Source: Escherichia coli (GTDB taxonomy: Bacteria > Pseudomonadota > Gammaproteobacteria > Enterobacterales > Enterobacteriaceae). Taken from it: 64,000 bases of DNA. Below, in pieces: positions 11,779 through 60,564 of the stretch. Below the pieces are notes generated by a model, which worked only from the letters and a program-made list of their open reading frames with translations, was not told where the DNA came from and ran no database searches. Position 1 is the stretch's first letter. Each line of letters begins with the position of its first letter. Made by a program: the position numbers and the translations under genes. The stretch is from assembly GCF_011045215.1 (NCBI RefSeq), contig NZ_CP049201.1; one strand, written 5' to 3'.

Positions 11779-14628
11779 TCAGAAGGTCACATTCAGCGTG
11801 GCCTGACCGTTATAGCCTTCGGCGCTGTTGCCGCTGACACTGTGGGCATAACCGGCCTGAACGCCCAGGGTGATATTTTCCCGGACACGGGCTTCCAGTC
11901 CGGCCTGCAGGTCCAGTGACGTGCCATTCCGGGACGGTGAAAACGTCATGTTACTGCCGGCGGCGGCTGTACCCATGCTCATGTCACCCCGGGAGCTGAA
12001 AGTGCGGATAACAGAAGGCTGTACCCACCAGTTCACCGGCAGTTCACTCACACGGTGTTTTGCACTGTCGCGCAGAGTGTCACGGGATGAGGTGCCTTCG
12101 CCAAAAGTCATATCGTTGTGGCTGCCCAGACGGAAGCCGGCACGCACATGTTGTGCACTGCCATGCCCGAACTTCACATAACCGGCGTTATCCTGGCCGT
12201 CATCCAGGGAGAGCCCCTGCCAGGTGTACTGCAGTTGTGGCTCCAGCATCAGGTTGTCAGTGATACTGAAGGGCAGACCGGTTTCCAGTGAGCCCAGCCA
12301 GCCCCAGCCCCGGGCGCGGAAGTCGTTATTGTCCGATGACGCTTTCATGCTGTGGCGGGTTCCCTGGGCCACAATGTCAGCCCACAGGCCGGAGGACGTG
12401 TGTACCAGATTCAGGTATCCGCCCAGGCTGCCGGCATCATCCCGGACCGTGCCGGCACGGGAGCCGTCATCATCCTTAACATCAACGGAAGAATGGCCAG
12501 CAGCACCATACACTCCTGTCGTCAGTGACATACCGGCAACCTCTGTTCTCAGCAGGTCACCCTCCAGACGGACGAGGCCATAGCTGCCGCTGCTTTCCGG
12601 CGTGGCCCCACGGGCAATACCACCGTTGTTATCGTGCCCGAGATGACCGCCCTGAATGCTGAGACGGACGCTGTTATTTTCACCGCTTACACCGGTCTGA
12701 TGGCTGCGGGAACCTGCCAGAATCCGGTCATAGTCCATTGCCTGTGTCAGCATGGAGGCATACAGGGGGACTTCAGCACGATAAGCATTTTCACTGCGCA
12801 GGTACCAGTCTTCATCGCTGTCACGGTTCAGGGTGTAGTTAAAGGCGCCGGCCTGAAGCGGGCGACTCAGGGCAAACGCACCTTCTTCTGTGGTAGCACC
12901 ATTCTGTGCATCCACAACCCGGATACCCTGTCCGGAGGTTGCCACCCCGAGGTTACTGTTTCCGACATTTGTAAACGCAAGCCAGGTTTTGCCGGTTGCC
13001 TGACCACCATTAATCACCAGCTGGTCAGAGGCATTACTGCCATCAAGGCTGACACGCATATTGATGGTGCCGCCCTGGCCGGTGAGGTTCGTGGTGGTTA
13101 GTTTATGGAACGTTACCGGGGAGTTACTTTTTGCAACAGCACGGCTCAGCGCGGCATCCGGTGTCGTCTGATTATCAAAGTGAATCTCTCCTGCGTTAAT
13201 AATATCGCCGGTACTGACCACATCACCATTCAGTACCATACTGGCGCCTTTACTGAGCTGTGTTCTGCCACTCAGACTTCCCCCGGCAGCCAGCGTCAGT
13301 GTTCCACGATGTCCGACAGTGGTGTTGCTGGCCAGTCCTCCGGCATTAACCGTAAAGCTGCCGCCATTTTCCAGCAGCAGGCCGCTGGCCTGACCGGATA
13401 TGCCATCAATACTGAACTTACCGCTGGCATTGGTCCCCTCAACAGTGGCACCACTGTCTGCAATCAGGGCACCACCGGATGTCATGGTGACATCTGTTGC
13501 CTTACCACCGGCAGACACTGCCAGGGTACCGCCGTCATCCACCAGTGTTTTCCAGGCTGAATGGCCCTCCAGTACATCCAGGCGACCGCCGGACTCCAGA
13601 ACAACGCCGTCAGCCTTACCGTTTTCCACTGTGAAATTCCCCAGGCGGTTTGTGCCGGTGACAGTTGCAGCAGTACTGGTAACCAGTGCACCGCCCGTGT
13701 TCTGGGTGACTGCAGTGGCTTCCCCGCCGGCATGTACCCTCAGTTCACCGTTCTGATTTATGGTGGTGTTACCGGCAGCGCCACCGGCCTTAACAACCTG
13801 CCAGCCCCCCTCGTTAATTACCGTGTTCAGCGCCAGTCCGTCCTTGTGCACATACTGGTAACCGCCATTCAGTGTGGTATTCAGGGCCCTTCCGTGTACC
13901 GACTGGTCACCACCTGCGTAAATGAGAGTGTCACGGGCTATCCCGGAAGATAAGATAATCTGCCGTCCATTTTTGTTGATGGTGGTGGATTCTGCTGTTC
14001 CCTGGACCTTCTGACCCGTGTACGAGTTGTCAGAATCCGGGCCGCCTTCTGCGCCGGTGTTGATGATGGTTCCTGTTGCCAGCCCGCCACTTTTAACGCT
14101 CTGGTAACCGTCGCGGTTGATAATTGTACCGGTGGCAACCCCGCCCTCATGAACCCACTGCTCGCCTCTGTTATTCAGCGTGGTGTTCACCGCCAGCCCG
14201 TTCAGGCTCTGTCCCCCGCCGTCACGAATAACCGTATCACTGGCTGTTCCCCCCTCCAGCACGACCTGACGACCATTTGTGGTGACAGTGGTGTTTCCGG
14301 CTATCCCGCCATTCTGTATCCATTGCCCACCGGTGTTTTCTTCACTGTCCGGCCCCAGTTCCAGCCCGGTACTGATGGTCATTCCGTTGGCCGTACCGAG
14401 GACAATCTGGTTGTCATGATTTGTCAGTGTTCCGCCGCTCATGGTTTCTCCCGCCTGTACAACCGTGTCAGCAGCCAGTGCCGGGACTGACGTGACAGCA
14501 GCAAGAGACAGCGCAACCGCCACACCGGTGCGTTTTCCCCGTGAGCGGGCCAGTTCGGAGGCCACCACCAGGGTGCCCGTAATGTGATTCCATACCAGCC
14601 TGTAGCTGGTGTTCAGATGTCGTTTCAT
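11779..14628 (-). CDS. flu: Antigen 43 / Cah-type self-associating autotransporter adhesin (949 aa)
   Basis: Extended signal peptide MKRHLNTSYRLVWNHITGTLVVASELARS..., repetitive passenger, C-terminal beta-barrel ending ...GYNGQATLNVTF; length equals the recalled Cah variant. Confidence 0.9.
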   Translation of the reverse strand: MKRHLNTSYRLVWNHITGTLVVASELARSRGKRTGVAVALSLAAVTSVPALAADTVVQAGETMSGGTLTNHDNQIVLGTANGMTISTGLELGPDSEENTGGQWIQNGGIAGNTTVTTNGRQVVLEGGTASDTVIRDGGGQSLNGLAVNTTLNNRGEQWVHEGGVATGTIINRDGYQSVKSGGLATGTIINTGAEGGPDSDNSYTGQKVQGTAESTTINKNGRQIILSSGIARDTLIYAGGDQSVHGRALNTTLNGGYQYVHKDGLALNTVINEGGWQVVKAGGAAGNTTINQNGELRVHAGGEATAVTQNTGGALVTSTAATVTGTNRLGNFTVENGKADGVVLESGGRLDVLEGHSAWKTLVDDGGTLAVSAGGKATDVTMTSGGALIADSGATVEGTNASGKFSIDGISGQASGLLLENGGSFTVNAGGLASNTTVGHRGTLTLAAGGSLSGRTQLSKGASMVLNGDVVSTGDIINAGEIHFDNQTTPDAALSRAVAKSNSPVTFHKLTTTNLTGQGGTINMRVSLDGSNASDQLVINGGQATGKTWLAFTNVGNSNLGVATSGQGIRVVDAQNGATTEEGAFALSRPLQAGAFNYTLNRDSDEDWYLRSENAYRAEVPLYASMLTQAMDYDRILAGSRSHQTGVSGENNSVRLSIQGGHLGHDNNGGIARGATPESSGSYGLVRLEGDLLRTEVAGMSLTTGVYGAAGHSSVDVKDDDGSRAGTVRDDAGSLGGYLNLVHTSSGLWADIVAQGTRHSMKASSDNNDFRARGWGWLGSLETGLPFSITDNLMLEPQLQYTWQGLSLDDGQDNAGYVKFGHGSAQHVRAGFRLGSHNDMTFGEGTSSRDTLRDSAKHRVSELPVNWWVQPSVIRTFSSRGDMSMGTAAAGSNMTFSPSRNGTSLDLQAGLEARVRENITLGVQAGYAHSVSGNSAEGYNGQATLNVTF

Positions 14629-14845
14629 CAGCTTTTCCTTACAGAGGGTGAATAAAAAAGCCGGTACCCACAAATGTGGATACCGGCAGGTACAAAACAG
14701 CATGGTCAGATAAAGTGGTTTTTCCCGGACATAAATGCTTCCCCTCTCTCATCCGCCAGAGAAGTATCAGTCCGTTGTGTGCAATTCCGTTCTGCATGAT
14801 GAAGAGATTCAGCTGCCTTTTCGCAGGCCATTAACCACTACAAAC

Positions 14846-14999: not shown

Positions 15000-15872
15000 T
15001 CAGAAGAAAATCCAGTTCCATACCGCACGGGCAACAGAGACCACCGTGTCACGAACAGCGCGCAGGGCCGTACGGACAACAGAGGCAACACAGACGCTCT
15101 CCGCTGTGTCAAATATCCGGTCCACCGCACCGGTAAACTGTTCACGGGCCTGAGAGCGGACAGATTCCGTGCGCAGCTCGTCCTGCAGTCGGGTCATCAG
15201 GGGACTGGCGGCATGGTCGGGAAGCGCTGTCATGAGCGCACTGACCAGCGTATCCAGTTCCCAGCCGGTGCGGGCCGATACGGCCACAACCGGATGTGCG
15301 GGCCGGAACAGACGGAATACCGCCTCCGTTTTTTCGCGAATGTTCCGTGCCTGTGCGGGAGAGGGCTGAATGCCGGCCATATCCCATTCATGGCAGGGCT
15401 CCGTTTTGTCGGCCTGCGTCACCACAAACAGCACCTGCTGATGTCCCCGGTGCAGGATGTGTCGCCAGAAATACTCATCCACAGACAAGGCACGGTCATC
15501 GGCTTTAATCAGCCACAGTACCAGGTCCAGTTCAGGCAGAATGTCACGGTACAGGGCTTCATACTCTGCATCCCTGTCCCGACTCTCGCCCACCCCGGGC
15601 AGGTCAGTAATAACCATGCTGTGACCGTGGCCACTCAGACGGAAGCGCCGCACTTCCCGGGTGCCGGCGTGAACATCACTGACCGGTGTGACCTCTCCCT
15701 GAAACAGGGCATTACAGAGTGAGGATTTACCGGCCCCGCTTTTCCCCATAATGCCAATCACGGGTTCGTGACTGGTGAGTTTGCGCAGATGTTCCAGGAT
15801 GTGACGGGAAAGTGAGTAAGGCAGGGAGGAGAGCGGTTTTTCAATTGCCTCAATGGCATCAGACGGATTCAT
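15000..15872 (-). CDS. YeeP/YkfA-family GTPase
   Basis: P-loop GIMGKSGAGKSS and G-domain motifs; 290 aa from MNPSDAIEAIEK...; upstream of the Ag43 gene as in CP4-44. Confidence 0.8.
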   Translation of the reverse strand: MNPSDAIEAIEKPLSSLPYSLSRHILEHLRKLTSHEPVIGIMGKSGAGKSSLCNALFQGEVTPVSDVHAGTREVRRFRLSGHGHSMVITDLPGVGESRDRDAEYEALYRDILPELDLVLWLIKADDRALSVDEYFWRHILHRGHQQVLFVVTQADKTEPCHEWDMAGIQPSPAQARNIREKTEAVFRLFRPAHPVVAVSARTGWELDTLVSALMTALPDHAASPLMTRLQDELRTESVRSQAREQFTGAVDRIFDTAESVCVASVVRTALRAVRDTVVSVARAVWNWIFF

Positions 15873-16087
15873 ACATGTATTCCCGGTGAAAAAAGACAAA
15901 ACCCCGCGCACCGGAAAAGTGGCGGGGGACTCACGGAGATAATATCTGCCTAAAATTATTTGGAATGCAGGTATATGCAGCTAATTTGTATCGGCTCATT
16001 AGTACAGAACTAAACCTCATCTGACAGTCCGCTCTGTGCCAAGAGCGGACTTTGCAAAATGGGGGTTATTTCAATCAAAACGTAACG

Positions 16088-17032
16088 TCACAACCAGCCG
16101 ACGCTCTCTCGCCATTTATAATTAGTAACTTTATCATTTTCGCTTATTTTTTTAGATATAGAGCGCGGCTCTCTTCCTAGATACTCAGATATTTCTATCG
16201 GGGACAAATCAAAATCGACAAGCATGACTCTAAGTTTTTCCATTTCCTTTAAAGTCCAAGGCTTGCCATAATTTTCATAAAGAGATACCTTATGCTCCCT
16301 GATAGTTCGCTTTCTCTGAGTTTCACTTTCCCTCTGAAAAATCTCGCTTTTAAATTGTGAACGGAACTCTTTACAGAAGTTGTTATCAGTTTTTTTGTTA
16401 TATAGATTGCTAAAAATAAGCTGGGATGCCGGGTCTAAATCAGGTGTGTTAATAATGAAAACTTTGACCTTTTCCATATAGGGATATTCAATTTTACCCA
16501 ATATGCTTAATTGCTTTATATTAAAAAAACCTCTCAAATCAAAAGATTTAATGAGCTTTGATTGGATTACACTTTCAATCCTGCTTGCATTTGAATAACA
16601 GTACTTTGCCATTGGAAGGGCCCATACTACCAGTTGAGGAATATATTTTTCTAATGCAATGCTCTGCCAATCAGTATCAAAGGTTTGGCTTTTTGCTAGC
16701 ATGTTTTTCGGCAAATCAGAATACATTGTGGTAGATGCCCATATCTTATAATCATTCGCCAAGGCTTGATAGTATTTTGTGTGGTTATGAATTTTATAAG
16801 CTGACATGAAGCGATAAACGTCTTCGTCGTGACCAGCGTCGTAAATTGTTCGATTTCCTCTAAGATAACCGTCGTAATGTTCGGTTATCCTTCTACCTAC
16901 ATTACAACTTACCCCAACGTAAACCACACGACTGAAAAGTCCTTTATGGACAATAAGATAAACTCCGCTACAGCCAGATTTCCTGGCCTCTGATAGAGAA
17001 CCTAAAAATCTCCATTCCATAATTAAATCCAT
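16088..17032 (-). CDS. GIY-YIG nuclease-domain protein, AT-rich, otherwise uncharacterised
   Basis: N-terminal GVYLIVHKGLFSRVVYVGVSCNVGRRITEHY resembles the GIY-YIG catalytic motif; low GC and Asn/Lys/Ile-rich; start uncertain (ATG at 17032 or 17020). Confidence 0.55.
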   Translation of the reverse strand: MDLIMEWRFLGSLSEARKSGCSGVYLIVHKGLFSRVVYVGVSCNVGRRITEHYDGYLRGNRTIYDAGHDEDVYRFMSAYKIHNHTKYYQALANDYKIWASTTMYSDLPKNMLAKSQTFDTDWQSIALEKYIPQLVVWALPMAKYCYSNASRIESVIQSKLIKSFDLRGFFNIKQLSILGKIEYPYMEKVKVFIINTPDLDPASQLIFSNLYNKKTDNNFCKEFRSQFKSEIFQRESETQRKRTIREHKVSLYENYGKPWTLKEMEKLRVMLVDFDLSPIEISEYLGREPRSISKKISENDKVTNYKWRESVGWL

Positions 17033-17494
17033 AATTATTGCTACTGTTTTTGTTTATCATTATTTTCGTGAAACTTCAACAATTTTATCCAAAAGCTAAG
17101 GGCAAAGACTTATATAATTATACTTGTCATCGTTAGCGATTATATAGAGTAGTGGCGCTGACCTGCTCCCTGGTGATTCACACAGAATGCTGTTAGTAAT
17201 GTCCGTTCCTCGCTCAAAGCAGACCATTCGCTCAGTTAACGCATCAGTGTCGTGCTAAAAGTAGACGTGGTTAACAACAATGTGAGTTAATCAACGGAGA
17301 GCAGGTCAACTCTAACCTGTATCAAAAAAACAAATGTGTCACAAAGATGCCGCATGCCTTAATTTGAGTATAATTGAGACGGAAGTAGACGGTTTATGGC
17401 TAAATATTGTTGATATATAGCTATTTGAAGAGTTGTAGCGCAAGTGTATAGCCCAAACTAATAACGCTACGCCCCTTACCTTTGACGCGTCTTA

Positions 17495-17803
17495 TCAAAG
17501 AGCGGCGATGATGCACAGCCCGCACGAGGCAATATTCGCACAAGAATCAGGTTCAGAAATAACCTGATCTGGCATGGTGGGGAGAGTATCACTGAGCAGG
17601 CTTTCGGTAAAATGCGGCGGGATGAGGTCGGCGTGGGTTGCAGCAGTACAATGTCGCCCGCAGAGGGTAAGCCACAGCGCGGGATCCTCGGTTTCTATCA
17701 GGGATTCGACGAAGTGGGCGCAGTTGTCGACCAAGGCGGTGAAATCCATAGTGACATTATAAGGAAACGAACAATAGATCGAGTAAATCGCAGTCAGGGA
17801 CAA
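17495..17803 (-). CDS. Hypothetical ORF (weak)
   Basis: 102-aa ORF in intergenic space; no recognisable motif. Confidence 0.2.
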   Translation of the reverse strand: MSLTAIYSIYCSFPYNVTMDFTALVDNCAHFVESLIETEDPALWLTLCGRHCTAATHADLIPPHFTESLLSDTLPTMPDQVISEPDSCANIASCGLCIIAAL

Positions 17804-18024
17804 GGATTGTAGTCATAGAGAAGTCTCCTGTAACGGTTTTCAGGAAGCTAATCCCGACGCCTGATTTTGCAGGCGCGGAAGGAGAAGATACTGCGGCCAT
17901 TAATCCGCCACAAGGCATTTACGTGCATAAATCGCGCAGTCAAATCCGACTCCCACTGTAGTTCTTGAACCTGATACCACATTTAGCTAATTTAGCTAAC
18001 TTATCTATTATACCAGTGGTTGCC

Positions 18025-18270
18025 ATGAATATGAATGAAGACGAGATTTATCGCCATATCCGGCAGGCACTTTCCAGTGCGCCTCGTAACCAGTACACCG
18101 TCGAGCTGCACCTGCAAATGATTAAATATGCCGACAAACTGGAACACATTACGGCAAAAGCCTTTTGCGAAGGCACTGGTCTGAACCAGAGCCTCGGTAC
18201 CGAATTCAGCAAAATGCGTAACTTAACCCATCGGTTAAAGGCCGCCGGTCTGAATACCGATCTGCTGTAA
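18025..18270 (+). CDS. Small hypothetical protein upstream of hsdM (81 aa from MNMNEDEIYRHIRQ...)
   Basis: Co-oriented ORF ending 40 nt before hsdM; function unknown. Confidence 0.4.
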   Translation: MNMNEDEIYRHIRQALSSAPRNQYTVELHLQMIKYADKLEHITAKAFCEGTGLNQSLGTEFSKMRNLTHRLKAAGLNTDLL

Positions 18271-18309
18271 CCGACTTACGGCACATTATCGCGCAAAACG
18301 AGATATTTA

Positions 18310-20748
18310 ATGGCTATCAAAAAAACCGAACTCTATTCTTCCCTGTGGGCAAGCTGCGACGAACTGCGTGGCGGGATGGACGCCAGCCAGTACAAAGACT
18401 ATGTACTGACCCTGCTGTTTATGAAGTACGTTTCCGATAAGTATAAAGGCGATCCTTACGGGATGATCGTGATACCCAAAGGAGCCAGCTTTGACGATAT
18501 GGTTGCGCTGAAAAATGACAAAGAGATCGGCGACAAAATCAACAAAATCATCCACAAGCTGGCGGAAGAGAACGGCCTGAAGGGCGTCATCGACGAAGCC
18601 GACTTTAACGACGAAGATAAGCTCGGCAAAGGCAAGGAAATGATTGACCGCCTGAGCAAGCTTGTCGGTATCTTTGAAGGGTTAAATCTCTCCAGCAACC
18701 GGGCCGAAGGCGACGATCTGCTGGGCGATGCCTATGAATATCTGATGCGTCACTTCGCAACCGAATCCGGTAAGAGTAAAGGGCAGTTTTACACTCCAGC
18801 GGAGGTGTCACGTATTCTGGCGAAGGTGATTGGTATTACTCCCGATACTCCGCAAGATGCAACGGTTTATGACCCAACCTGTGGCTCTGGTTCGCTGCTG
18901 TTGAAAGTGAATGATGAAGCCCGGCGCGGACTGTCGATTTTCGGCCAGGAGATGGATAACGCTACCAGTGCGCTGGCGCGGATGAACATGATTCTGCATA
19001 ACAATGCCACCGCGAAAATCTGGCAGGGCAATACGCTGAGCGATCCGCAGTGGAAAGAGGCGAACGGCAAACTGAAAGCCTTCGATTTTGCCGTGGCGAA
19101 CCCGCCTTTTTCCAATAAAAACTGGACCAACGGGCTGACGCCGAAAAAAGATCCGTTTGAACGCTTCGGCTGGGGTATTCCGCCGGAAAAAAACGGCGAT
19201 TATGCTTTTTTGTTGCATATCATTAAAAGCCTGAAAAGTACCGGCAAAGGCGCGGTGATCCTGCCCCACGGCGTACTGTTTCGCGGTAACGCCGAAGCGA
19301 ATATCCGTGAAAATCTAATCAAGCAGGGCTATATCAAAGGCGTTATTGGTTTGCCAGCCAACCTGTTTTACGGCACCGGCATCCCGGCGTGCATCATTGT
19401 GATTGATAAAGAGCACGCCCACAGCCGCAAAGGCATTTTTATGATCGACGCCAGCCGGGGCTTTATCAAAGATGGCAACAAGAACCGCCTGCGTAGCCGA
19501 GATATTCACCGCATTGTGGACGTGTTCAACCATCAGCGAACGGTACCTGGCTACAGCCGGATGGTGCCCTCCAGCGAGATCGCCGGAAATGATTACAACC
19601 TGAATATTCCTCGCTATATCGAGAGCGGCGAGCCGGAAGATTTACACGATCTGACCGCGCACTTACAGGGCGGTATTCCGGCACGCGATGTGGATGCTTT
19701 GCAAGATTACTGGCGGGTATTCCCTGCCCTGCGCAACGTGCTGTTTGCTGACGACCGTCCCGGTTACTGTCGGGCGCAGGTGAACGCGCAACAGGTGAAA
19801 CCGACCATTCTGGCGCATCAGGAGTTTAAGGATTTTGCCACCCGCAGCCTGCTACCGTTTAAAGCGTGGGTGAAAGAGGCAAGTCTGGAAGAGATTCGCA
19901 AAGGTGATAAACCCAAAGCGCTAATCCACGATATCAGCGAAATGCTATTGGCGCAGTACGCCAACAGTGAGTTGCTGAACAAATACAGCGTGTACCAGAT
20001 CCTGATGGATTACTGGACTGATGTCATGCAAGACGATGTGTATGCGATTATGCAGGATGGCTGGCAAGCCGCCGCGCAAATCCGCGAGCTTCAGCCGGTG
20101 AAAGGCAAAGATGGCAAAAACATCTGGAAAGAAACGCACGATTTCGAGTTTACCAAACGGCGCTACAAGGCCGATGTGCTGCCCCGTTCGCTGGTGGAAA
20201 TTCGCTGTTTCCCGGAACTGCTGGATGCGCTGAACCGCGCGCAGGAGCGCAGTGAAGAAGCCAGTCGTCAGCTAGTGGAATTCATCGAGGAGCAGGCAGG
20301 TGAAGAGGATCTGCTGGCCGAGGCGAAGAACGATAAAGATAAGGTGACGCAAAAGCTGGTGAATGCCCGTCTAGCACAGTTAAAGAAAACCACTGCCGGC
20401 CCAGATGAGCTGGCAGTGCTGAACCGCTGCCTGGCGCTAATTAAGGCCGAAGCCAGTGCGAAAAAAGCGCTGAAAGCCGCACAAGAAGCGCTGGATCGGG
20501 CGGTGTTTAAACATTATCCCACGCTGGATGAAGCAGCGATTAAAACGCTGGTAGTGCAGGATAAGTGGCTGGCAACGTTGCAGGCAGGGATCAAGGCGGA
20601 GATTGAGCGTATTACCCAGCAACTGGCGTCGCGCGTAAAGGAGCTGGAAGAGCGTTATGCTGAACCGTTGCTAGCGCTTGAAGCCTCCGTTGAGGCGTTG
20701 AGCGAGAAAGTGGCCGGGCATTTGCGGGCGATGGGGCTGGAGTGGTGA
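18310..20748 (+). CDS. hsdM: Type I restriction-modification methyltransferase subunit HsdM (long form, 812 aa)
   Basis: AdoMet motif DPTCGSGSLL and catalytic NPPF; long coiled-coil C-terminal extension; stop overlaps hsdS start. Confidence 0.9.
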   Translation: MAIKKTELYSSLWASCDELRGGMDASQYKDYVLTLLFMKYVSDKYKGDPYGMIVIPKGASFDDMVALKNDKEIGDKINKIIHKLAEENGLKGVIDEADFNDEDKLGKGKEMIDRLSKLVGIFEGLNLSSNRAEGDDLLGDAYEYLMRHFATESGKSKGQFYTPAEVSRILAKVIGITPDTPQDATVYDPTCGSGSLLLKVNDEARRGLSIFGQEMDNATSALARMNMILHNNATAKIWQGNTLSDPQWKEANGKLKAFDFAVANPPFSNKNWTNGLTPKKDPFERFGWGIPPEKNGDYAFLLHIIKSLKSTGKGAVILPHGVLFRGNAEANIRENLIKQGYIKGVIGLPANLFYGTGIPACIIVIDKEHAHSRKGIFMIDASRGFIKDGNKNRLRSRDIHRIVDVFNHQRTVPGYSRMVPSSEIAGNDYNLNIPRYIESGEPEDLHDLTAHLQGGIPARDVDALQDYWRVFPALRNVLFADDRPGYCRAQVNAQQVKPTILAHQEFKDFATRSLLPFKAWVKEASLEEIRKGDKPKALIHDISEMLLAQYANSELLNKYSVYQILMDYWTDVMQDDVYAIMQDGWQAAAQIRELQPVKGKDGKNIWKETHDFEFTKRRYKADVLPRSLVEIRCFPELLDALNRAQERSEEASRQLVEFIEEQAGEEDLLAEAKNDKDKVTQKLVNARLAQLKKTTAGPDELAVLNRCLALIKAEASAKKALKAAQEALDRAVFKHYPTLDEAAIKTLVVQDKWLATLQAGIKAEIERITQQLASRVKELEERYAEPLLALEASVEALSEKVAGHLRAMGLEW

Positions 20749-22088
20749 TGGTGGATTTAATGGTGAATGAGCAACGGTCGAGTACGGCGGGGAAAGATGT
20801 GCCTGCGGGGTATAAACTGACTGAGGTGGGCGTGATTCCTGAGGATTGGGATTGCGTACCATTTGGTAATCTGTTTAAAACAAACACAAAGAAAAAAAAA
20901 GTCAGCGATTATGAGCTAGTTTCATTTATTGGGATGCAGGATGTTAGTGAAGATGCACAATTAAAAAATAATACTCAACTTCCTTTTAAAGAAGTTAAAA
21001 GTGGTTTTACTTACTTTGAAAAAGGGGATGTTTTATTAGCTAAAATAACCCCTTGTTTTGAAAATGGAAAAGGATGTCATACCGCTGATTTACCTACTAA
21101 TGTAGGTTTTGGGAGTACGGAATTTCATGTATTAAGGGAAAATGAAGACTCCGATTCTCGCTTCATCTATTTTTGGACAACTGATAAAAAATTCAGAGCA
21201 TCACTGGAATCTGAAATGGTGGGAAGTGCGGGACACCGTCGTGTGCCGCTAGTTGCTATAGAAAAATATTTGATTCCATGTCCCCCAAATTTGCAAGAGC
21301 AAAGTGCTATTGCTGATTCATTATCTGATATTAATAATTTTATTCTAGCTCTAGAAAAGCTTATCGTTAAAAAACAAGCCATTAAAACCGCTACTATGCA
21401 GCAACTACTGACGGGTAAAACCCGTTTGCCACAGTTTGCGTTACGCAAAGATGGCTCTGCTAAGGGATATAAAAAGAGCGAGTTGGGGGCGATTCCTGAA
21501 GATTGGGTAGTCACAAGCATTGGACAATTTACTGACTGCTGTGCTGGTGGAACTCCGAGTACTAAAATTTCAGCATATTGGGGAGGAACTCATCCTTGGA
21601 TGAGTTCCGGCGAATTACACTTAAAACAAGTGTATGCTGTAGCCGATTATATAACCGACGAAGGGCTTGTTAACTCCAGTACAAAGTATGTGCCTAAAAA
21701 TTCTGTATTAGTCGGATTGGCAGGACAAGGAAAGACTCGAGGGACTGTAGCAATTAATCGCATTGAATTATGTACTAATCAGTCTATTGCTGCGATTTTC
21801 CCCAGCAAACATCATTCCACAGAATTCCTGTTCTATAACCTCGACAGTCGTTATGAGGAACTGAGAAGTTTATCTACTGGTGATGGGGGGCGTGGTGGGT
21901 TGAATCTTACTATTATCAGGAAATTACATCTTGCATTTCCGCCAAAAGAAGAACAAGCCGCCATCGCCGCCATCCTCTCCGATATGGACAAGGAAATCCA
22001 GATCCTGCAACAGCGTCTGGACAAAACCCGCCAGCTTAAGCAAGGGATGATGCAGGAACTGTTAACCGGGAAAATCCGCTTAATATAG
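20748..22088 (+). CDS. hsdS: Type I R-M specificity subunit HsdS
   Basis: Two target-recognition-domain architecture with conserved central and C-terminal repeats (LLTGKTRLP / LLTGKIRL); ATG overlaps hsdM TGA (ATGA). Confidence 0.85.
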   Translation: MVDLMVNEQRSSTAGKDVPAGYKLTEVGVIPEDWDCVPFGNLFKTNTKKKKVSDYELVSFIGMQDVSEDAQLKNNTQLPFKEVKSGFTYFEKGDVLLAKITPCFENGKGCHTADLPTNVGFGSTEFHVLRENEDSDSRFIYFWTTDKKFRASLESEMVGSAGHRRVPLVAIEKYLIPCPPNLQEQSAIADSLSDINNFILALEKLIVKKQAIKTATMQQLLTGKTRLPQFALRKDGSAKGYKKSELGAIPEDWVVTSIGQFTDCCAGGTPSTKISAYWGGTHPWMSSGELHLKQVYAVADYITDEGLVNSSTKYVPKNSVLVGLAGQGKTRGTVAINRIELCTNQSIAAIFPSKHHSTEFLFYNLDSRYEELRSLSTGDGGRGGLNLTIIRKLHLAFPPKEEQAAIAAILSDMDKEIQILQQRLDKTRQLKQGMMQELLTGKIRLI

Positions 22089-22100
22089 AAGGGAAAGCAC

Positions 22101-22757
22101 ATGGCTTATGATTACAGCGCCAGCCTCAACCCGCAAAAAGCTCTGATCTGGCGTATCGTCCATCGGGACAATATCCCGTGGATTCTGGATAACGGGCTGC
22201 ACTGCGGCAACAGTCTGGTGCAGGCGGAAAACTGGATCAATATCGGCAACCCGGAGCTGATCGGCAAGCGTGCCGGGCATCCGGTACCTGTCGGAACGGG
22301 CGGGACACTGCATGACTATGTGCCGTTTTATTTTACCCCCTTCTCGCCAATGCTGATGAACATCCACAGCGGGCGCGGCGGCATTAAGCAACGCCCCAAT
22401 GAGGAGATCGTTATTCTGGTCAGCAACTTGCGGAACGTGGCAGCACACGACGTGCCCTTCGTGTTTACCGACAGCCATGCTTACTATAACTGGACCAACT
22501 ACTACACCAGTCTGAATAGTCTGGACCAGATCGACTGGCCCATTTTGCAGGCACGGGACTTTCGCCGCGATCCAGACGATCCGGCTAAATTTGAACGCTA
22601 TCAGGCAGAGGCGCTAATCTGGCAACACTGCCCGATCTCTCTGCTGGATGGGATAATTTGTTACAGCGAAGAGGTCAGGTTACAATTAGAGCAATGGCTG
22701 TTTCAGCGTAATCTAACAATGTCCGTTCACACACGGGCTGGATGGTACTTCTCATGA
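22101..22757 (+). CDS. darT: DarT-like DNA ADP-ribosyltransferase toxin (DUF4433)
   Basis: 218-aa ORF immediately followed by a macrodomain gene with overlapping stop/start; family call from recalled DUF4433 features. Confidence 0.7.
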
Positions 22758-23821
22758 TCACATATACACAAGGCAATTTACTGGACGCACCGGTGGAAGC
22801 TCTGGTGAATACGGTTAATACCGTCGGTGTCATGGGGAAAGGCATCGCGTTGATGTTTAAAGAGCGCTTCCCCGAAAATATGAAAGTCTATGCCCTCGCT
22901 TGCAAACAAAAGCAGGTGATCACCGGCAAAATGTTCATTACCGAAACCGGGGAACTGATGGGACCGCGCTGGATTGTTAATTTTCCGACCAAACAGCACT
23001 GGCGCGCTGATTCCCGCATGGAGTGGATTGAAGATGGCTTGCAGGACTTACGCCGCTTTTTGATTGAAGAGAACGTGCAGTCCATCGCCATTCCACCACT
23101 GGGCGCAGGCAACGGTGGTTTGAACTGGCCGGACGTTCGGGCGCAGATTGAATCTGCCCTTGGCGACCTTCAGGACGTTGATATCCTGATTTACCAACCG
23201 ACTGAAAAATACCAGAACGTTGCCAAAAGCACTGGCGTAAAAAAGCTCACTCCCGCCAGAGCCGCCATCGCTGAACTGGTGCGTCGCTACTGGGTATTGG
23301 GGATGGAGTGCAGCCTACTGGAAATCCAGAAACTGGCCTGGCTGTTACAACGCGCCATTGAGCAGCATCAACAGGACGATATCCTCAAACTGCGGTTTGA
23401 AGCTCACTATTATGGCCCCTATGCGCCCAATCTGAACCATCTGCTTAATGCGCTGGACGGCACCTATCTAAAAGCCGAGAAACGCATCCCGGACAGCCAA
23501 CCGCTGGATGTGATCTGGTTTAACGATCAAAAAAAAGAACACGTTAATGCGTATCTGAACAACGAAGCCAGAGAGTGGCTACCTGCGCTGGAGCAGGTCA
23601 GCCAGTTAATTGACGGCTTTGAATCGCCGTTTGGTCTGGAGTTGCTGGCAACCGTAGACTGGTTGCTGAGCCGTGGCGAATGTCAACCAACGCTGGATTC
23701 CGTTAAGGAAGGACTGCACCAGTGGCCTGCGGGCGAACGCTGGGCCAGCCGTAAGTTGAGGCTGTTTGATAATAATAATCTGCAATTTGCCATTAACCGC
23801 GTAATGGAGTTCCATTGCTGA
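22754..23821 (+). CDS. darG: DarG-like macrodomain antitoxin
   Basis: N-terminal macrodomain signature ([36 protein letters not shown]) plus C-terminal extension; ATG overlaps darT TGA; alternative in-frame ATG at 22742. Confidence 0.75.
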
Positions 23822-23839
23822 GGGTTTAAGGAGCGCCTT

Positions 23840-26800
23840 TTGAGTACCGTGGGCCAGCGCGAACGCGCCACACAGCAGCGTCTGATTCAGTTTTTTGTTG
23901 AAGATTTAGGATACCGCCATCTGAGTCACCGCACCGGGTACACCGGGAACAGCAACATCGACACTAATATACTGAGCGCGTGGCTAAAACGGCGCGGCGT
24001 TAATGATACGTTGATCACCCGGGCGTTGCGGCAACTGGATTCCGCCGCCGCCCTGGGCGAAGGCAAAAAACTCTATTACGCCAATAAAGAGGTCTATCGC
24101 CTGCTGCGTTACGGCGTGAAAGACAAAGAAGGTGCAGGCGAGCAGAACCAAACCGTGTGGCTGATTGACTGGGCCAACCCACAAGCCAATGATTTCGCCA
24201 TCGCCGATGAGGTGACGGTCAAAGGCGAGTACTGCAAGCGCCCGGATCTGGTGCTGTACGTTAACGGCATTGCGCTGGGCGTGATTGAACTTAAGCGTTC
24301 GTCAGTGCACGTCAGCGAAGGTATCCGGCAGAATCTCGATAATCAAAAGAAAACCTTTATCCGCGATTTCTTCACCACTATGCAGTTAGTGATGGCAGGC
24401 AACGATACGCAGGGCCTGCGCTACGGCACCATCGAAACCCCGGAAAAATACTATCTGGAGTGGAAAGAAGATAATCCAGGCGACTATACACATAAACTCG
24501 ACTTTCATTTAAGTCGTCTGTGTAGCAAATCCAGGCTGTTGGATATCGTCCATAATTACATTGTCTTTGATGTCGGGGTGAAAAAACTCTGCCGCCATAA
24601 TCAGTTCTTCGGCGTCGAGGCGGCTAAGCAACATATTGCCCGTCGTGAAGGCGGTATTATCTGGCACACACAGGGATCGGGTAAAAGCCTGACGATGGTC
24701 TGGCTGGCGAAGTGGATCCGTGAAAATGTGCCAAACTCCCGCGTGTTGATTGTGACTGACCGCACCGAACTGGATGAACAGATCGAAAGCGTGTTTATGG
24801 GCGTGAATGAAGATATTTATCGCACCTCCAGCGGCAACGATCTTATCGCAACGCTCAATCATCCTAACCCGTGGCTTATTTGCTCGCTGGTGCATAAATT
24901 TGGTTGTCGCAGCGAAGCTGAAGACAATGCGGCTACCGACGCCTTTATCACCGAATTACAGCAGTCCCTGACGAAAACATTCCGCGCCAAAGGCGATCTG
25001 TTTGTTTTTGTGGACGAGTGCCACCGCACACAATCCGGCAAGCTGCATAACGCCATGACTGCCATTCTGCCGGACGCCCTGTTTATCGGTTTTACCGGCA
25101 CACCGCTGATGAAGAAAGATAAGAAGAAGTCGGTTGAGGTGTTCGGCCCTTATATCCATACCTATAAATTTGATGAAGCGGTGGCCGACGGTGTGGTGCT
25201 GGATCTGCGCTACGAGGCGCGCGATATTGACCAGTATCTGACATCAGAGAAAAAGGTCGATGACTGGTTTGAAGCCAAGACTCGCGGTTTGTCGAATTTA
25301 GCCAGGACCCAGCTTAAGCAAAAGTGGGGATCAATGCAGAAGCTGCTCTCCAGCAAGTCGCGGCTGGAGCAGATCGTTAACGACATTTTGCTGGATATGG
25401 ATACCCGTCCACGCCTGATGGACGGGCGCGGCAACGCCATGCTGGTATGCAGCAGTATCTATCAAGCCTGCAAGGTTTACGAGATGTTCAGCCAGACCGA
25501 GCTGGCAGGAAAAGTAGCGATTGTGACCAGCTATCGCCCCGATGCCGCCAGCATCAAAGGCGAAGAAACGGGCGAAGGGTTAACGGAGAAACTCTCTAAA
25601 CACGCCACCTATCGTAAAATGTTGGCTGACTATTTTGAACAAAGTGAAGAGAAGGCCGCCGCACGCATTACCGAGTTCGAGCGGGAAGTGAAACAACGTT
25701 TTATTGAAGAGCCGGGGCAAATGCGCCTGCTTATCGTGGTGGACAAGCTGTTGACTGGCTTTGACGCGCCGTCCGCCACCTATCTCTACATTGATAAAAC
25801 CATGACCGACCATACGCTGTTTCAGGCGATTTGTCGGGTGAACCGGCTGGACGGTGAGGATAAAGAGTATGGCTATATTATCGATTATAAAGATCTGTTC
25901 CGTTCGCTGGATAAAGCGATTACCGATTACACCACGGGCGCGTTTGATGATTACGATCGGGACGATGTGGCCGGGTTGCTGAAAGACAGGCTGGAGCAGG
26001 CGCAACTGGATCTCGACAGCGCGCTGGAGATGGTTCGCAGCTTATGTGAGCCCGTCAAAACCCCGCGCAGCCTGCAGGACTATCAGCACTATTTTTGCGG
26101 TAAATCAGGAGAGAATCAGACTTCGTTAAACGAAAAAGAGGCGCTGCGCCTGACATTTTACCAGTGCGTCGCCCGTCTGCTACGCGCTTATGCCAGCATC
26201 GCCAATGAAATGCCGGAAGCAGGCTACACTGCCGAAGAGGTAGAGAGCATTCGCGCCGAAGTCGCTGAATTCGAAAAACTGCGCTATGAGATTAAGCTGA
26301 CCAGCGGCGATCTTCTGGATATGAAGCGCTTTGAACCCGCTATGCGTCATTTACTGGATATGTATGTTCGCGCCGATGGTAGCGAAGTGCTGATGGATTT
26401 TGAAGAGTTAAGTCTGATTGAACTGATTGTCGAGAAAGGCTTGGCGGCGACCGTCGCCCTGCCGGATGATATCCGTAATAATCAGGATGCGATGGCGGAA
26501 ACCATCGAAAACAACGTGCGCAAAACCATCGTGGATGAAAACCCGGTTAACCCAAAATACTATGGACGCATGTCGCAGCTGCTGGATGAACTGATTACCC
26601 TTCGCCGACAAAATGCGCTCAATTATCAGCAGTATCTGGAACGTATCCGCGATTTGTGTAAACAGGTCATCCGCCCGGAGCAAACCGCCGGAGCGTGCTA
26701 CCCTGCCACCATGGATACACAAGCAAAGCGCGCCTTCTATGACAACTTCGGCCACGACGAGGTACTGGCGACCCGCATAGATACGACAATTCGCTATACC

Positions 26801-26935
26801 AAAAGGGCAGAGTGGATTGGCGATCGTTTTAAAGAACGGGAAATTGCCAACGCATTACGTGAAGAGACCGCCAGCTATAATATTGATATTGATGAGGTGA
26901 TAGCGCTTGCCCGTCAGCAGAAGGAATATCACTGA
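23840..26935 (+). CDS. hsdR: Type I restriction endonuclease subunit HsdR (1031 aa)
   Basis: SF2 helicase motifs (HTQGSGKSLTM Walker A, VFVDECHR DEAH-box); TTG start 7 nt after AAGGAG. Confidence 0.9.
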   Translation: MSTVGQRERATQQRLIQFFVEDLGYRHLSHRTGYTGNSNIDTNILSAWLKRRGVNDTLITRALRQLDSAAALGEGKKLYYANKEVYRLLRYGVKDKEGAGEQNQTVWLIDWANPQANDFAIADEVTVKGEYCKRPDLVLYVNGIALGVIELKRSSVHVSEGIRQNLDNQKKTFIRDFFTTMQLVMAGNDTQGLRYGTIETPEKYYLEWKEDNPGDYTHKLDFHLSRLCSKSRLLDIVHNYIVFDVGVKKLCRHNQFFGVEAAKQHIARREGGIIWHTQGSGKSLTMVWLAKWIRENVPNSRVLIVTDRTELDEQIESVFMGVNEDIYRTSSGNDLIATLNHPNPWLICSLVHKFGCRSEAEDNAATDAFITELQQSLTKTFRAKGDLFVFVDECHRTQSGKLHNAMTAILPDALFIGFTGTPLMKKDKKKSVEVFGPYIHTYKFDEAVADGVVLDLRYEARDIDQYLTSEKKVDDWFEAKTRGLSNLARTQLKQKWGSMQKLLSSKSRLEQIVNDILLDMDTRPRLMDGRGNAMLVCSSIYQACKVYEMFSQTELAGKVAIVTSYRPDAASIKGEETGEGLTEKLSKHATYRKMLADYFEQSEEKAAARITEFEREVKQRFIEEPGQMRLLIVVDKLLTGFDAPSATYLYIDKTMTDHTLFQAICRVNRLDGEDKEYGYIIDYKDLFRSLDKAITDYTTGAFDDYDRDDVAGLLKDRLEQAQLDLDSALEMVRSLCEPVKTPRSLQDYQHYFCGKSGENQTSLNEKEALRLTFYQCVARLLRAYASIANEMPEAGYTAEEVESIRAEVAEFEKLRYEIKLTSGDLLDMKRFEPAMRHLLDMYVRADGSEVLMDFEELSLIELIVEKGLAATVALPDDIRNNQDAMAETIENNVRKTIVDENPVNPKYYGRMSQLLDELITLRRQNALNYQQYLERIRDLCKQVIRPEQTAGACYPATMDTQAKRAFYDNFGHDEVLATRIDTTIRYTKRAEWIGDRFKEREIANALREETASYNIDIDEVIALARQQKEYH

Positions 26936-27651
26936 TGCCAATCATGCAAATAGGCTCGTTACACTTGCTGGTCAACCGTAAGGCGATTAAGAATCTGCAT
27001 ATCAGCGTGCTGCCGCCTGATGGCAAAGTCCGCGTTTCAGCGCCGGAACATATGACGGAGACGGCGATTCGTATGGCGGTTGCTTCACGCTTTCGCTGGA
27101 TCAGAAAACAGCAGCAGGATTTCGCCAGACAGCCTCGTCAATCAGAGAGGGAAATGGTCAGCGGAGAGTGCCACTATCTTTGGGGCCGAAGATATCGCCT
27201 ACTTGTGATTGAGCGTCACGGGCGTCACGAAGTAAAAGTTGCGGGAAATAATAAGCTCCAGCTTTATGTTCAACCGGGAACCCGTGATGAAAATAAGGCA
27301 TTGGCGTTAAGTGAATTTTATCGACATGAACTAAAACAGCAGGTGGCTAAGCTTCTACCTGAATGGCAAGACCGAATCGGTGTTCCCCTAACATTCTGGG
27401 GCATCAAAAAGATGAAAACCTTTTGGGGCACCTGTAACACTACAACAAAACGAATCTGGCTCAATCTGGAGCTAATTAAGAAGCCGCCGGAGTGTCTGGA
27501 GTATATTCTGGTGCATGAACTGGTTCATCTTCTGGAACGTCACCATAATGCTCGCTTCCGGTTGCATATGGATCGGTTTATTCCTGACTGGCGTGAGCGT
27601 CGGGATTTGTTAAATAATATGCCGTTAGCGTTTGAGGCATGGGAGTATTGA
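26935..27651 (+). CDS. M48/DUF45 (YgjP-like) zinc metallopeptidase-fold protein
   Basis: HEXXH motif (HELVHLLERHH); ATG overlaps hsdR stop. Confidence 0.75.
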   Translation: MPIMQIGSLHLLVNRKAIKNLHISVLPPDGKVRVSAPEHMTETAIRMAVASRFRWIRKQQQDFARQPRQSEREMVSGECHYLWGRRYRLLVIERHGRHEVKVAGNNKLQLYVQPGTRDENKALALSEFYRHELKQQVAKLLPEWQDRIGVPLTFWGIKKMKTFWGTCNTTTKRIWLNLELIKKPPECLEYILVHELVHLLERHHNARFRLHMDRFIPDWRERRDLLNNMPLAFEAWEY

Positions 27652-27907
27652 TTGAGCCTGTAACTGTTTTTTGTCCATAAATTAACCTTCATTTGATGCT
27701 GGATAGAACATATCAAAATCAGACAATTACACAAATCTATGTACAGGCTCAACTCCTGCCATGGAACGTAGTACTCACCAATAAGTAAGCATCAATACGG
27801 CGCTCCGTTAACGCTTACTAGCATGGTTATCTCCTTAAAAAATTGAGGCGACAACTATGCTGACACAGGGGGTTACTCACCGATCTCCTTCACGGTAATA
27901 CGCAGTT

Positions 27908-28024
27908 CTTCAGAACCCGCCTCCGATACCAGCCTGGCGGTCGCCCCGGCGCAAGCAAAATAAATCGACCATTGTCAGACTGCGATCGTTCGGATGCCCC
28001 GCCACCGACGCATCAGTATGAGTT
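27908..28024. repeat. Direct repeat copy A (~117 bp), partner at 36875..37003
   Basis: cttcagaacccgcctccgataccagcctggcg...gcaagcaaaataaatc.accattgtcagactgcgatc shared with copy B at ~88% identity by eye. Confidence 0.7.
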
Positions 28025-28258
28025 AACCGAAACGATACAAAATTGCCTGAGAATCATTACGCTGGCTGATGGAAGGCACACCAAAAGCCTCTGCACAGAA
28101 CGATGTTCGGCAACAACAGAAACATGATTGCGTTCATGGCAATAGTCATTCGTACCGTTACAGGCGGTATTGATTTATTACAGACAAGCGGTACATATAT
28201 GTACCGCTTGGTTAAGTAAAAAAACAGATATGAACGCTATTATGTTCATTCTACTTTA

Positions 28259-49448: not shown

Positions 49449-49640
49449 ATGTCTGAAGATATCCCGTTACCCAAAGTCGGTCAGCGATACAGAGACGATC
49501 ATGGTGCGCTTGTCACCGTAACCAGTGTTGAGGAAACCCGGGTGGTATTTATGCGGGACGGCTATCCACATCCCTGTATGCGGCCAATGTACAACTTTCC
49601 AGGAAAATTCAAACCCGAACCCCGGGAAGAAACAGAATAA
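49449..49640 (+). CDS. Small hypothetical protein (63 aa)
   Basis: ORF only. Confidence 0.3.
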   Translation: MSEDIPLPKVGQRYRDDHGALVTVTSVEETRVVFMRDGYPHPCMRPMYNFPGKFKPEPREETE

Positions 49641-49692
49641 AACGAAATTCCTGCCGGCAATCACACTGCCTGATGGCAGCATAATCCACTTT

Positions 49693-60543: not shown

Positions 60544-60564
60544 AACGTTAAAACAGGCAAATTG

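Follow-up and report, generated by a model that had tools for sequence, protein, structure and literature searches.

The hsdM-hsdS pair at positions 18310..22088 (+ strand) raises the question of whether its 812-residue methyltransferase subunit and AT-rich specificity segment are peculiar to this Escherichia coli strain or belong to a known kind of Type I restriction-modification (RM) system. Below, "the window" denotes the whole 64,000-nucleotide stretch of DNA that was analysed. According to gene order and sequence similarity, the pair forms part of the RptR / Type I RM / DarTG2 / M48 (RRDM) defence island. This island is already known: it was characterised earlier in EPEC E2348/69, and its anti-phage activity there is described in passages of Zhang et al. 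(NAR 2025, PMC12255303). The window has the RRDM order rptR-hsdM-hsdS-darT-darG-hsdR-M48, the same seven genes that are annotated by RefSeq in related loci, as well as TAGCTA direct repeats in the promoter. The repeats (TAGCTA, TAGCTA, and TATCTA with 9-bp spacing, read in the sequence at 17984..18007, +) form the RptR operator upstream of rptR and agree with the three direct repeats with a TAGCTA palindrome given for the RRDM promoter in passages of the same paper. The first island gene, rptR (18031..18270, +), encodes an HTH_73 repressor (Pfam, E 3.5e-28), and its equivalent in loci L001 and L002 is a 240-bp CDS according to RefSeq. Behind hsdS lie the embedded toxin gene darT (22101..22757, +; Pfam DarT, E 2e-53; PADLOC DarT) and antitoxin gene darG (22754..23821, +; Pfam Macro; PADLOC DarG; RefSeq coordinates). 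They are followed by hsdR (23840..26935, +), the product of which has the N-terminal nuclease region and SF2 translocase of a Type I restriction subunit (Pfam HSDR_N, SWI2_SNF2 as the SWI2_SNF2/ResIII element, and T1R_D3-like; PADLOC REase_I PDLC03044), and by the last island gene, a YgjP-like / M48 metallopeptidase (26935..27651, +; Pfam YgjP-like, E 1e-61). Over positions 17900-27700, nucleotide identity is 96.7-98.7% to E2348/69 with the exception of the first target recognition domain (TRD1), and 99.5-99.9% to strain CFSAN061761 with the exception of TRD2. The exact HsdM and the exact HsdS are both already deposited in NCBI, the latter on 20 contigs. Since the island was characterised before and both proteins are deposited, the window itself adds little.

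The N-terminal half of HsdM is conventional. The gene (ORF 18310..20748, +) encodes an 812-aa long-form Type I methyltransferase subunit with Pfam domains HsdM_N (aa 10-121, E 2e-17) and N6_Mtase (aa 135-441, E 7e-104), and its score against TIGR00497 hsdM (282.8 bits) exceeds the cut-off of 242.75. The N6-adenine methyltransferase catalytic domain (aa 135-441; 18712..19632, +), assigned by Pfam, motifs, and Foldseek, carries motif I DPTCGSGS at aa 188 (from nt 18871) and motif IV NPPF at aa 264-267 (nt 19099-19110), which together with the N-terminal domain make up a Type I HsdM. Residues 1-447 are thus a canonical Type I subunit. The core is matched by PacII M, 3lkd, and EcoR124I HsdM in Foldseek (E 1e-19 to 1e-29), with 28-29% identity to the last of these. 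The N-terminal domain and core are shared with EcoR124II M and EcoKI M (E 1e-64 and 1e-21, respectively), and complete chains align with the solved EcoR124I / EcoprrI (Type IC) and EcoKI (Type IA) complexes at a target-normalised TM-score (TMt) of 0.62-0.80. The difference lies in length: classical HsdMs have 490-530 aa with a helical tail of 35-55 aa past the NIPRY region, also in solved HsdMs, while the window HsdM has about 365 residues there, beyond the methyltransferase core. Subunits of families IA, IC, ID, and IE are described as equivalent in length (PMC3510504), and with 812 aa and a core distant from EcoR124I, and more so from EcoKI, this HsdM falls, by sequence similarity and length, outside classical families IA-IE. 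The large C-terminal addition of the original prediction is therefore real, with 365 residues in place of the estimated 300 or so.

AlphaFold models the addition with confidence (pLDDT 94 and pTM 0.90 for full-length HsdM, 97 and 0.89 when the extension is modelled by itself), and 2 parts can be distinguished. The first (aa 448-625; 19651..20184, +) is a helical subdomain that also contains two small beta elements (pLDDT 97), and the second (aa 626-812; 20185..20745, +), delimited by model secondary structure and composition, is rich in E/K/A/L and consists largely of long, antiparallel predicted helices (635-662, 698-738, 741-783, and 787-807). The share of E+K+A+L is 53.5% in the second part compared with 33% in the first and 30% in the core, so the coiled-coil-like character claimed earlier for the whole extension applies only to its last ~190 residues. 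The most conserved extension motif, YQ.LMDYW..MQDDVY...GW, belongs to the first part (region of nt 20002-20064), where W569, D575, D576, G584, and W585 are each conserved in at least 90% of 150 sequences. It is also only this part that is matched in the distant long HsdMs of Streptococcus, Shewanella, and Arsenophonus (tblastn of plasmids), and the second part contains insertions of ~100 aa in relatives P0015, P0058, and P0120. Ten well-diverged comparisons among six E. coli alleles give dN/dS values of 0.07-0.17 for the extension; at about 0.1, these codon-level ratios indicate purifying selection. For aa 448-812 no match was obtained in Pfam, NCBIfam, or PDB sequences, none of the solved HsdM structures covers the extension, and no structural relative was found. 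The literature found describes no function for it, and the passages on HsdM in PMC12255303 make no mention of HsdM length or of a C-terminal module.

The extension is nevertheless widespread, which contradicts the claim that this HsdM is unusually long: it is present in the RRDM enzyme of E2348/69, where 18 of the 812 HsdM residues differ, as well as in a Vibrio cholerae locus, in more than 2,100 clusters, and in four PADLOC Type I methyltransferase models. Because it is common to characterised enzymes of its class, HsdM is not unusual within that class. A search at the level of 50%-identity clusters gave 2,101 matches to the extension, 1,108 of which reach E<=1e-10, and plasmids from Proteobacteria, Actinobacteria, Cyanobacteria, and Firmicutes encode it as well. 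In the matches inspected it is joined to an HsdM core or forms a fragment that is annotated as type I M protein or as N-6 DNA methylase; one listed match, P0212, has the unrelated precomputed Pfam PF00106 instead. PADLOC PDLC03027 (MTase_I) is matched end to end, C-terminal module included (E = 0, 1425.6 bits, residues 1-812 on profile positions 1-810 of 810), and the extension alone matches its positions 445-810 with E 2e-134. The 365-aa module thus marks a subfamily of "long" HsdMs that is both large and old. Among Type I methyltransferases this class is very common, and the module it carries is modelled with a confident fold and has no domain-family entry. As for V. cholerae, contig L017 encodes a long HsdM, HsdS, two GmrSD-like genes, HsdR, and YgjP, with identities to the window of 56% for the extension, 79% for HsdR, and 71% for YgjP, and nearly identical HsdS conserved regions. 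Its cargo occupies the same hsdS-hsdR slot, being a type IV restriction pair rather than DarTG. By gene order and domain content, L017 is probably the published VPI-2 Type I RM cluster with embedded TgvAB (VC1769-VC1765; PMC11411939, PMC12409362); no rptR homologue was found in this contig, the start of which falls inside hsdM.

Taken as a whole, the locus is probably an RRDM hsdM/hsdS pair in which a long HsdM with a proposed HsdS-docking end accompanies a reassorted HsdS with two TRDs. The last HsdM helices would take the place of the short tail that ends classical HsdMs and pack against the two conserved helices, or coiled coil, of HsdS, which would set the HsdM C-terminus beside the start of a TRD; the remainder of the extension may be an inserted scaffold or arm. 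We infer docking from the gene overlap, natural fusions, and EcoKI geometry. The hsdM stop (20746-20748) and the hsdS ATG (20748) share 1 nt as TGATG, and the same 1-nt overlap occurs in EcoKI, where each HsdM C-terminus lies near a TRD start (PMC3510504). Of 150 representative relatives, at least 10 are natural fusions of a long HsdM with a single TRD and one conserved helix, and behind their last HsdM helix comes the LLTG..RLPGF connector usually found in front of a TRD; locus L003 has a fusion of this kind next to hsdR and ygjP and has no separate hsdS. This arrangement corresponds to the "Type IMS" HsdM-HsdS fusion engineered in EcoKI and named by Roberts et al. (NAR 2012, PMC3510504), while in the window hsdM and hsdS are separate genes linked only by TGATG, which places them outside Type IMS. 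A construct of the core plus the last 42 residues aligns slightly deeper than the native sequence into the C-terminal tails of EcoR124II M and PacII M, with a gain of only 2-3 bits. Profile-profile comparison of the terminal HsdM helices with HsdS (hhalign) returned nothing (probability 0.3%). The ~100-aa insertions fit a freely projecting arm better than packing along an HsdS coiled coil of fixed length, and the docking proposal leaves the strongly conserved motif at aa 559-585 unaccounted for.

Two other readings concern the long HsdM. That the 812-aa ORF is an artefact, either hsdM joined to a downstream coiled-coil gene by a sequencing error or recent frameshift, or a core with a decaying remnant as its tail, might be suggested by the lack of database matches for aa 448-812 and by the many relatives that are fragments of 230-450 aa. 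However, full-length relatives (777-845 aa) from different phyla are collinear, the 90%-identity cluster containing this HsdM comprises 835 members (among those inspected, several are 812 aa long, next to fragments and a few HsdS), the frame is kept in the six E. coli alleles at the low dN/dS given above, and AlphaFold returns a single confident model. In at least 13 of the short entries the first residue is precisely the conserved LMDYW methionine (query position 111); we take these to be genes predicted on truncated contigs from metagenomes. An artefactual or fusion origin is refuted by the relatives, dN/dS, cluster members, and model, and we give it practically no credence. According to the other reading, the extension would be a regulatory or sensing arm coupling the RM core to the YgjP-like metallopeptidase or to the hsdS-hsdR cargo, by analogy with EcoprrI, which restrains PrrC and likewise has an embedded gene (prrC) before hsdR. 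Among relatives with at least 26% identity in the extension, 19 of the 20 loci with sequence available past hsdR have ygjP there, and all 17 HsdMs upstream of ygjP relatives carry the extension. Cargo of more than 500 bp occupies the hsdS-hsdR junction in 12 of ~29 loci (DarTG, GmrSD-like genes, a zeta-toxin-like gene, SMODS+SLATT, DUF4238, and McrBC), so that embedded defence genes are often carried by the long-HsdM operon family. In addition, the length of the helical part varies as in a projecting arm, and 26 of the 30 variable HsdM residues among E. coli alleles fall in the extension. In contrast, the extension is unchanged in cargo-free loci (L003, L006, L019, L023, L037, and others) and is thus not cargo-specific, and in the loci of the more distant long HsdMs from Streptococcus salivarius and Shewanella baltica no ygjP is annotated past hsdR. 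Furthermore, the ygjP link is counted within one co-inherited operon family and may reflect shared ancestry alone, while the extra divergence of the extension is paralleled by higher dS, which fits recombination tracts entering from hsdS. On balance, a coupling arm appears unlikely. The same low weight is given to its fuller version, in which the module would be a functional arm specific to the widespread operon hsdM(long)-hsdS-[cargo]-hsdR-ygjP and act by recruiting or gating the YgjP-like metallopeptidase (e.g., for restriction alleviation or complex turnover) or by reporting the RM state to the cargo; if true, the family would serve generally as a "carrier" platform in which defence genes are embedded. 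Whether as docking end or arm, the function of the module, once found, would improve Type I assembly models and might explain the frequent cargo.

A third alternative concerns hsdS (20748..22088, +; RefSeq start; 446 aa; two stretches of Pfam Methylase_S; PADLOC PDLC03098), which has the TRD1-CR1-TRD2-CR2 layout of a Type I specificity subunit in the six-allele alignment and the same two-TRD, two-helix plan as HsdS of EcoR124I, EcoprrI, and EcoKI. The low GC content reported for positions 20880-21400 is confirmed by a GC window check: the segment has GC 0.345 and GC3 0.22, compared with GC 0.53 for hsdM and 0.52 for hsdR. The island minimum (0.34; mean 0.504, sd 0.041) is located at the TRD1 segment, and only 4.7% of 521-bp windows across the 64 kb are equally GC-poor. 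The tract is, however, wider than that segment. It covers TRD1 (allele A, the interval diverging from E2348/69; 20851..21295, +; GC 0.35, GC3 0.23), the central conserved region with linker (21296..21506, +; GC 0.40), and TRD2 (allele x; 21507..21946, +; GC 0.42, GC3 0.31), while the conserved hsdS ends have GC 0.51-0.53, including the distal conserved region (21947..22085, +; six-allele alignment; GC 0.51) and the stretch adjoining TRD1 (GC 0.53, GC3 0.59). Low GC was originally read as indicating that a TRD had been swapped. Such a swap is considered here as a recent import of TRD1 from an AT-rich donor into this strain, and both the composition of TRD1 relative to its conserved neighbour and its complete dissimilarity to TRD1 of E2348/69 speak for such an event. 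On the other hand, an identical TRD1 (100%) is present in 70 complete E. coli genomes and in the nearest relative (L001), low GC (0.35-0.42) extends to every one of the three TRD1 and three TRD2 alleles as well as to the central region, and the domain exchanged with respect to that relative is TRD2, which cannot be aligned there. Recent import is therefore quite improbable, and low GC, judged by the composition of six alleles, characterises the hsdS variable core in general and is not the mark of one swap.

Reassortment of the TRDs, which belongs to the preferred reading, is visible in the six alleles, and the earlier claim of exchangeable target recognition domains stands. Three TRD1 types (A, B, and C) and three TRD2 types (x, y, and z) occur in 6 of 9 possible combinations, with recombination breakpoints at 20850/21296 and 21506/21947, i.e., at both ends of the central region, which is kept in all six; with such a grid, a few methylomes would suffice to assign half-site specificities. 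Based on these alignments, hsdS is an ordinary two-TRD mosaic of a CFSAN061761-type TRD1 and an E2348/69-type TRD2, reassorted through recombination in the shared central conserved region. In comparison with the RRDM island of E2348/69, gene order and RptR operator repeats are alike and TRD2 is 99.4% identical (as it is to ten other genomes), while TRD1 is another allele, so the predicted specificity differs. Given the mosaic, and under the general rule that TRDs act independently, the enzyme should recognise a bipartite site with one half-site per parental allele. Methylation of such a site to m6A and ATP-dependent restriction by an R2M2S1 complex are likewise predicted. For E2348/69, two bipartite m6A motifs are reported at the level of the strain (PMC8495745).

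The hsd genes at 18310-22088 belong to an already known locus, the RRDM island (RptR / RMS / DarTG / M48) of EPEC E2348/69; what the original prediction had observed there is correct, and its interpretation is half right. According to Pfam, the 812-aa ORF of hsdM (18310-20748, +) carries HsdM_N (aa 10-121) and N6_Mtase (aa 135-441), and the 446-aa ORF of hsdS directly after it (20748-22088, +) has two Methylase_S stretches; the hsdM ORF also scores over the cut-off of NCBIfam TIGR00497 (hsdM). The DPTCGSGS of motif I begins at nt 18871, and NPPF begins at nt 19099, close to the position of ~19090 predicted for the latter. The hsdM TGA (20746-20748) and the hsdS ATG (20748-20750) overlap by one base (TGATG), an arrangement shared with the EcoKI hsdM/hsdS junction (PMC3510504); the mechanical ORF list has a GTG at 20742 as the hsdS start. 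A small HTH_73 gene is the 5' neighbour of hsdM, and hsdS is followed by DarT, macro-domain DarG, HsdR, and a YgjP-like/M48 metallopeptidase (all by Pfam). The same seven genes are annotated by RefSeq in strains CFSAN061761 (locus L001) and E2348/69 (L002). RRDM was shown to protect against phages, and RptR represses it by binding TAGCTA repeats (PMC12255303); TAGCTA, TAGCTA, and TATCTA occur in the window at 17984-18007. Of 5,426 complete E. coli genomes, 257 contain the hsdM-hsdS segment by megablast. Identity equals 96.7-98.7% to E2348/69 outside the first target recognition domain (TRD1) and 99.5-99.9% to CFSAN061761 outside the second (TRD2). An Rfam scan of 17000-28500 gave no match, and promoter and terminator scans gave results at chance level.

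The long HsdM is a real protein. That its ORF might be a fusion or annotation artefact is ruled out by collinear relatives (full-length proteins of 777-845 aa and diverse origin align with it end to end), the kept reading frame (intact in six E. coli alleles of hsdM), the structural model, and the exact copies in NCBI (E. coli entries on 28 contigs). Ten well-diverged comparisons among the six alleles give dN/dS values of 0.07-0.17 for the C-terminal extension (aa 448-812, 365 aa) versus 0.02-0.06 for the core (aa 1-447). AlphaFold2 with a 150-sequence alignment reports pLDDT 94 and pTM 0.90 for the whole protein, and 97 and 0.89, respectively, for aa 445-812 alone. The extension consists of 2 parts. 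In the first (aa 448-625), a helical subdomain that includes two small beta elements, lie the residues with the highest conservation in the module (W569, D575, D576, G584, and W585, each in at least 90% of the 150 sequences). The second (aa 626-812) is built from long helices (635-662, 698-738, 741-783, and 787-807), and E, K, A, and L constitute 53.5% of it versus 30% of the core. The description of the extension as coiled-coil-like therefore holds for the last ~190 residues only.

Searches with the extension returned no structural relatives below E 0.2 in PDB (Foldseek), only noise in Pfam at E ≤ 10, just one sub-threshold ATP synthase b match in NCBIfam, and just Nop5 (E 0.3) in a PDB sequence search. 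Term searches of the RRDM and VPI-2 papers and of the Type I review gave no description of this module. It is common and its fold is confidently predicted, and the wider literature searched likewise yielded no account of it as an HsdM C-terminal extension or coiled coil.

Compared with classical, structurally solved enzymes, the window HsdM is unusual. All solved HsdMs (PacII M, 3lkd, EcoR124I, EcoKI, and others; 445-640 aa) align over only ~500 model columns, with a query-normalised Foldseek TM-score against the window model of at most 0.50. Sequence alignments to them end no more than a few residues from the NIPRY region (aa ~443-453), past which only 35-55 residues remain in the solved chains. 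According to PMC3510504, subunit lengths are equivalent across families IA, IC, ID, and IE. Compared with catalogued proteins, however, the window HsdM is not unusual. Against 1.84 billion representative proteins, the extension alone matches 2,101 clusters at E ≤ 1e-3 (1,108 of them at E ≤ 1e-10), and all named matches are annotated as type I M protein or N-6 DNA methylase, save two "hypothetical protein" entries. Among the PADLOC models for Type I methyltransferases, a dedicated one of 810 positions matches residues 1-812, and three others contain the module. According to tblastn, the extension also occurs on 60 plasmids from Proteobacteria, Rhodococcus, cyanobacteria, and Firmicutes. As for the more distant long HsdMs of Streptococcus salivarius (2,565-bp gene, ~854 aa) and Shewanella baltica (2,592 bp, ~863 aa), the plasmid search aligned the first part of the module alone, and in a later tblastn the alignment covers most of it at 20-26% identity. 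Another representative cluster, P0093 (817 aa), adjoins thyX, DUF2443, and dnaA, a Helicobacter lead; H. pylori HP1403 may be such a long HsdM, and the literature searched gives neither length nor motif for it.

The module is also found in experimentally studied systems. It is present in the E2348/69 island, and the V. cholerae locus L017 (long HsdM, HsdS, GmrSD_N, GmrSD_N+C, HsdR, YgjP) has the layout of the published VPI-2 T1RM-TgvAB cluster, which methylates GATGN6CTT and restricts phages (PMC12409362, PMC11411939). Since one studied system has it and a second probably does, the C-terminal region is common to characterised enzymes of this class, and together with the 2,101 clusters and the PADLOC models this overturns the claim that the HsdM is unusually long.

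Five parts of hsdS emerge from alignment with relatives: a conserved N-terminal piece (20748-20850), TRD1 (20851-21295), a conserved central region that includes a linker (21296-21506), TRD2 (21507-21946), and a conserved distal region (21947-22085). Among six E. coli alleles, three TRD1 (A, B, C) and three TRD2 (x, y, z) types occur in 6 of the 9 possible pairings: the window (A+x), CFSAN061761 type (A+y, 70 complete genomes), E2348/69 type (B+x, 11 complete genomes), UK_Dog_Liverpool (B+y), O157:H7 NE 1169-1 (C+y), and STEC2017-197 (C+z). The window combination is absent from complete RefSeq E. coli genomes (0 of them); the exact HsdS protein, however, is present in NCBI on 20 E. coli contigs, and the allele is therefore not new. 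As predicted, the hsdS segment at ~20880-21400 is AT-richer than its flanks, with a GC of 0.345, the lowest of the island. Its reading as the signature of a swapped TRD1 stands only in part. The gene does contain exchangeable TRDs, but among the six alleles every TRD has GC 0.35-0.42 and GC3 0.22-0.32, and the central region has GC 0.40-0.42 versus 0.50-0.55 at the two ends. Low GC is thus a feature of the entire exchangeable core, whichever the allele. This would agree with a pool of cassettes that has a history of its own, but it does not single out TRD1 as swapped; the domain swapped relative to the nearest relative is TRD2. Neither E2348/69 motif, YTCAN6GTNG or CYYAN7RTGA, could be tied to the island by spacing rules or by the V. 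cholerae GATGN6CTT.

Judging by the allele sequences, recombination tracts or breakpoints appear to extend into hsdM (20185-20745, codons 626-812). The window and UK_Dog_Liverpool alleles are identical over codons 448-625 and have dS 0.136 over codons 626-812. For most allele pairs, the 3' part of hsdM has a dS about double the core value, and 26 of 30 variable HsdM residues in the six alleles lie in the extension (Fisher p = 2e-6).

In EcoKI and EcoR124I, short C-terminal helices of HsdM pack along two conserved HsdS helices. The end of each HsdM is close to a TRD start (PMC3510504). The last helices of the long HsdM would do the same job as this classical tail, packing on the conserved helices of HsdS, as suggested by the TGATG coupling, natural M-S fusions, and the helix-to-connector junction within them. 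At least 10 of the 150 representative relatives are fusions of a long HsdM with a single TRD and one conserved helix (clusters P0016, P0027, P0035, P0040, P0053, P0057, P0072, P0075, P0090, and P0101), natural counterparts of the engineered "Type IMS" arrangement. In locus L003 (376-3420) such a fusion is followed by hsdR and ygjP, without a separate hsdS. In P0016 and P0075 the terminal HsdM helix leads directly into the LLTG..RLPGF..W connector, which usually joins an HsdS conserved helix to the following TRD. The fusions, however, show proximity only, and a simple docking picture has against it the tolerated insertions of ~100 aa in the helical part among relatives, which suggest a projecting arm, the invariant but unexplained motif of the first subdomain, and the lack of HsdS profile similarity. 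Homology of the terminal helices to HsdS conserved regions was rejected at an hhalign probability of 0.3%. An insertion model was likewise dropped: when the core is joined to the last 42 residues, the alignment runs slightly deeper into the tails of EcoR124II and PacII than it does for the native protein, and the gain of only 2-3 bits is too weak as evidence.

Related loci were collected by two viral-contig scans, seeded with the extension and with YgjP (locus scan alignment of 7 sequences), and then by tblastn with the window proteins. The order hsdM(long)-hsdS-hsdR-ygjP recurs across them. In 19 of 20 loci with sequence, hsdR is immediately followed by the ygjP-like/M48 gene (26935-27651 in the window), which often overlaps hsdR or lies within ~20 bp of it. 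The two stay together in L004 and L005, although that pair runs divergently from hsdM-hsdS. Each of the 17 HsdMs detected upstream of a ygjP relative has the extension, a link that is inseparable from shared ancestry on these loci. Read with genetic code 11, the ygjP homologue of L040 (16946-17608) is interrupted by several in-frame stops, and the neighbouring hsdR aligns at full length; either the homologue is a pseudogene or the genome is recoded.

In this operon family the junction between hsdS and hsdR is a hotspot for cargo, with defence genes that differ between loci and a gap of more than 500 bp in ~12 of 29 loci (window 22088-23840, L007, L017, L018, L021, L022, L024, L032, L040, L043, L056, and L057). 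The cargo is DarTG in the window, two GmrSD-like genes in L017 (TgvAB in V. cholerae), a GmrSD_N protein in L018, a zeta-toxin-like gene in L022, SMODS+SLATT_4 in L024, DUF4238 in L056, an AAA_5 ATPase with McrBC in L057, and proteins without a family in L021 and L032 (246 aa each) and L007 (140 aa). The extension is found in loci both with and without cargo and therefore has no tie to DarTG. In E. coli STEC2017-197 (L013, 2003-2392) darT is annotated as frameshifted and darG is intact; the embedded toxin is inactivated in at least one lineage.

The island is part of a larger mobile region. It is flanked by an Ag43/Cah-type autotransporter gene (11779-14703, -) and a YeeP-like GTPase gene (15000-15911, -), the same context as in CFSAN061761. 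Just upstream of the island lies a 314-aa ORF (16088-17032, -) with GC ~0.35, hypothetical in RefSeq; its GIY-YIG match (aa 21-61, E 0.017) is below threshold, and none of the PADLOC models matches it. Further extended low-GC tracts of the window (GC ≤ 0.36 in 521-bp windows) are located at 48921-55202 and 58321-60842.
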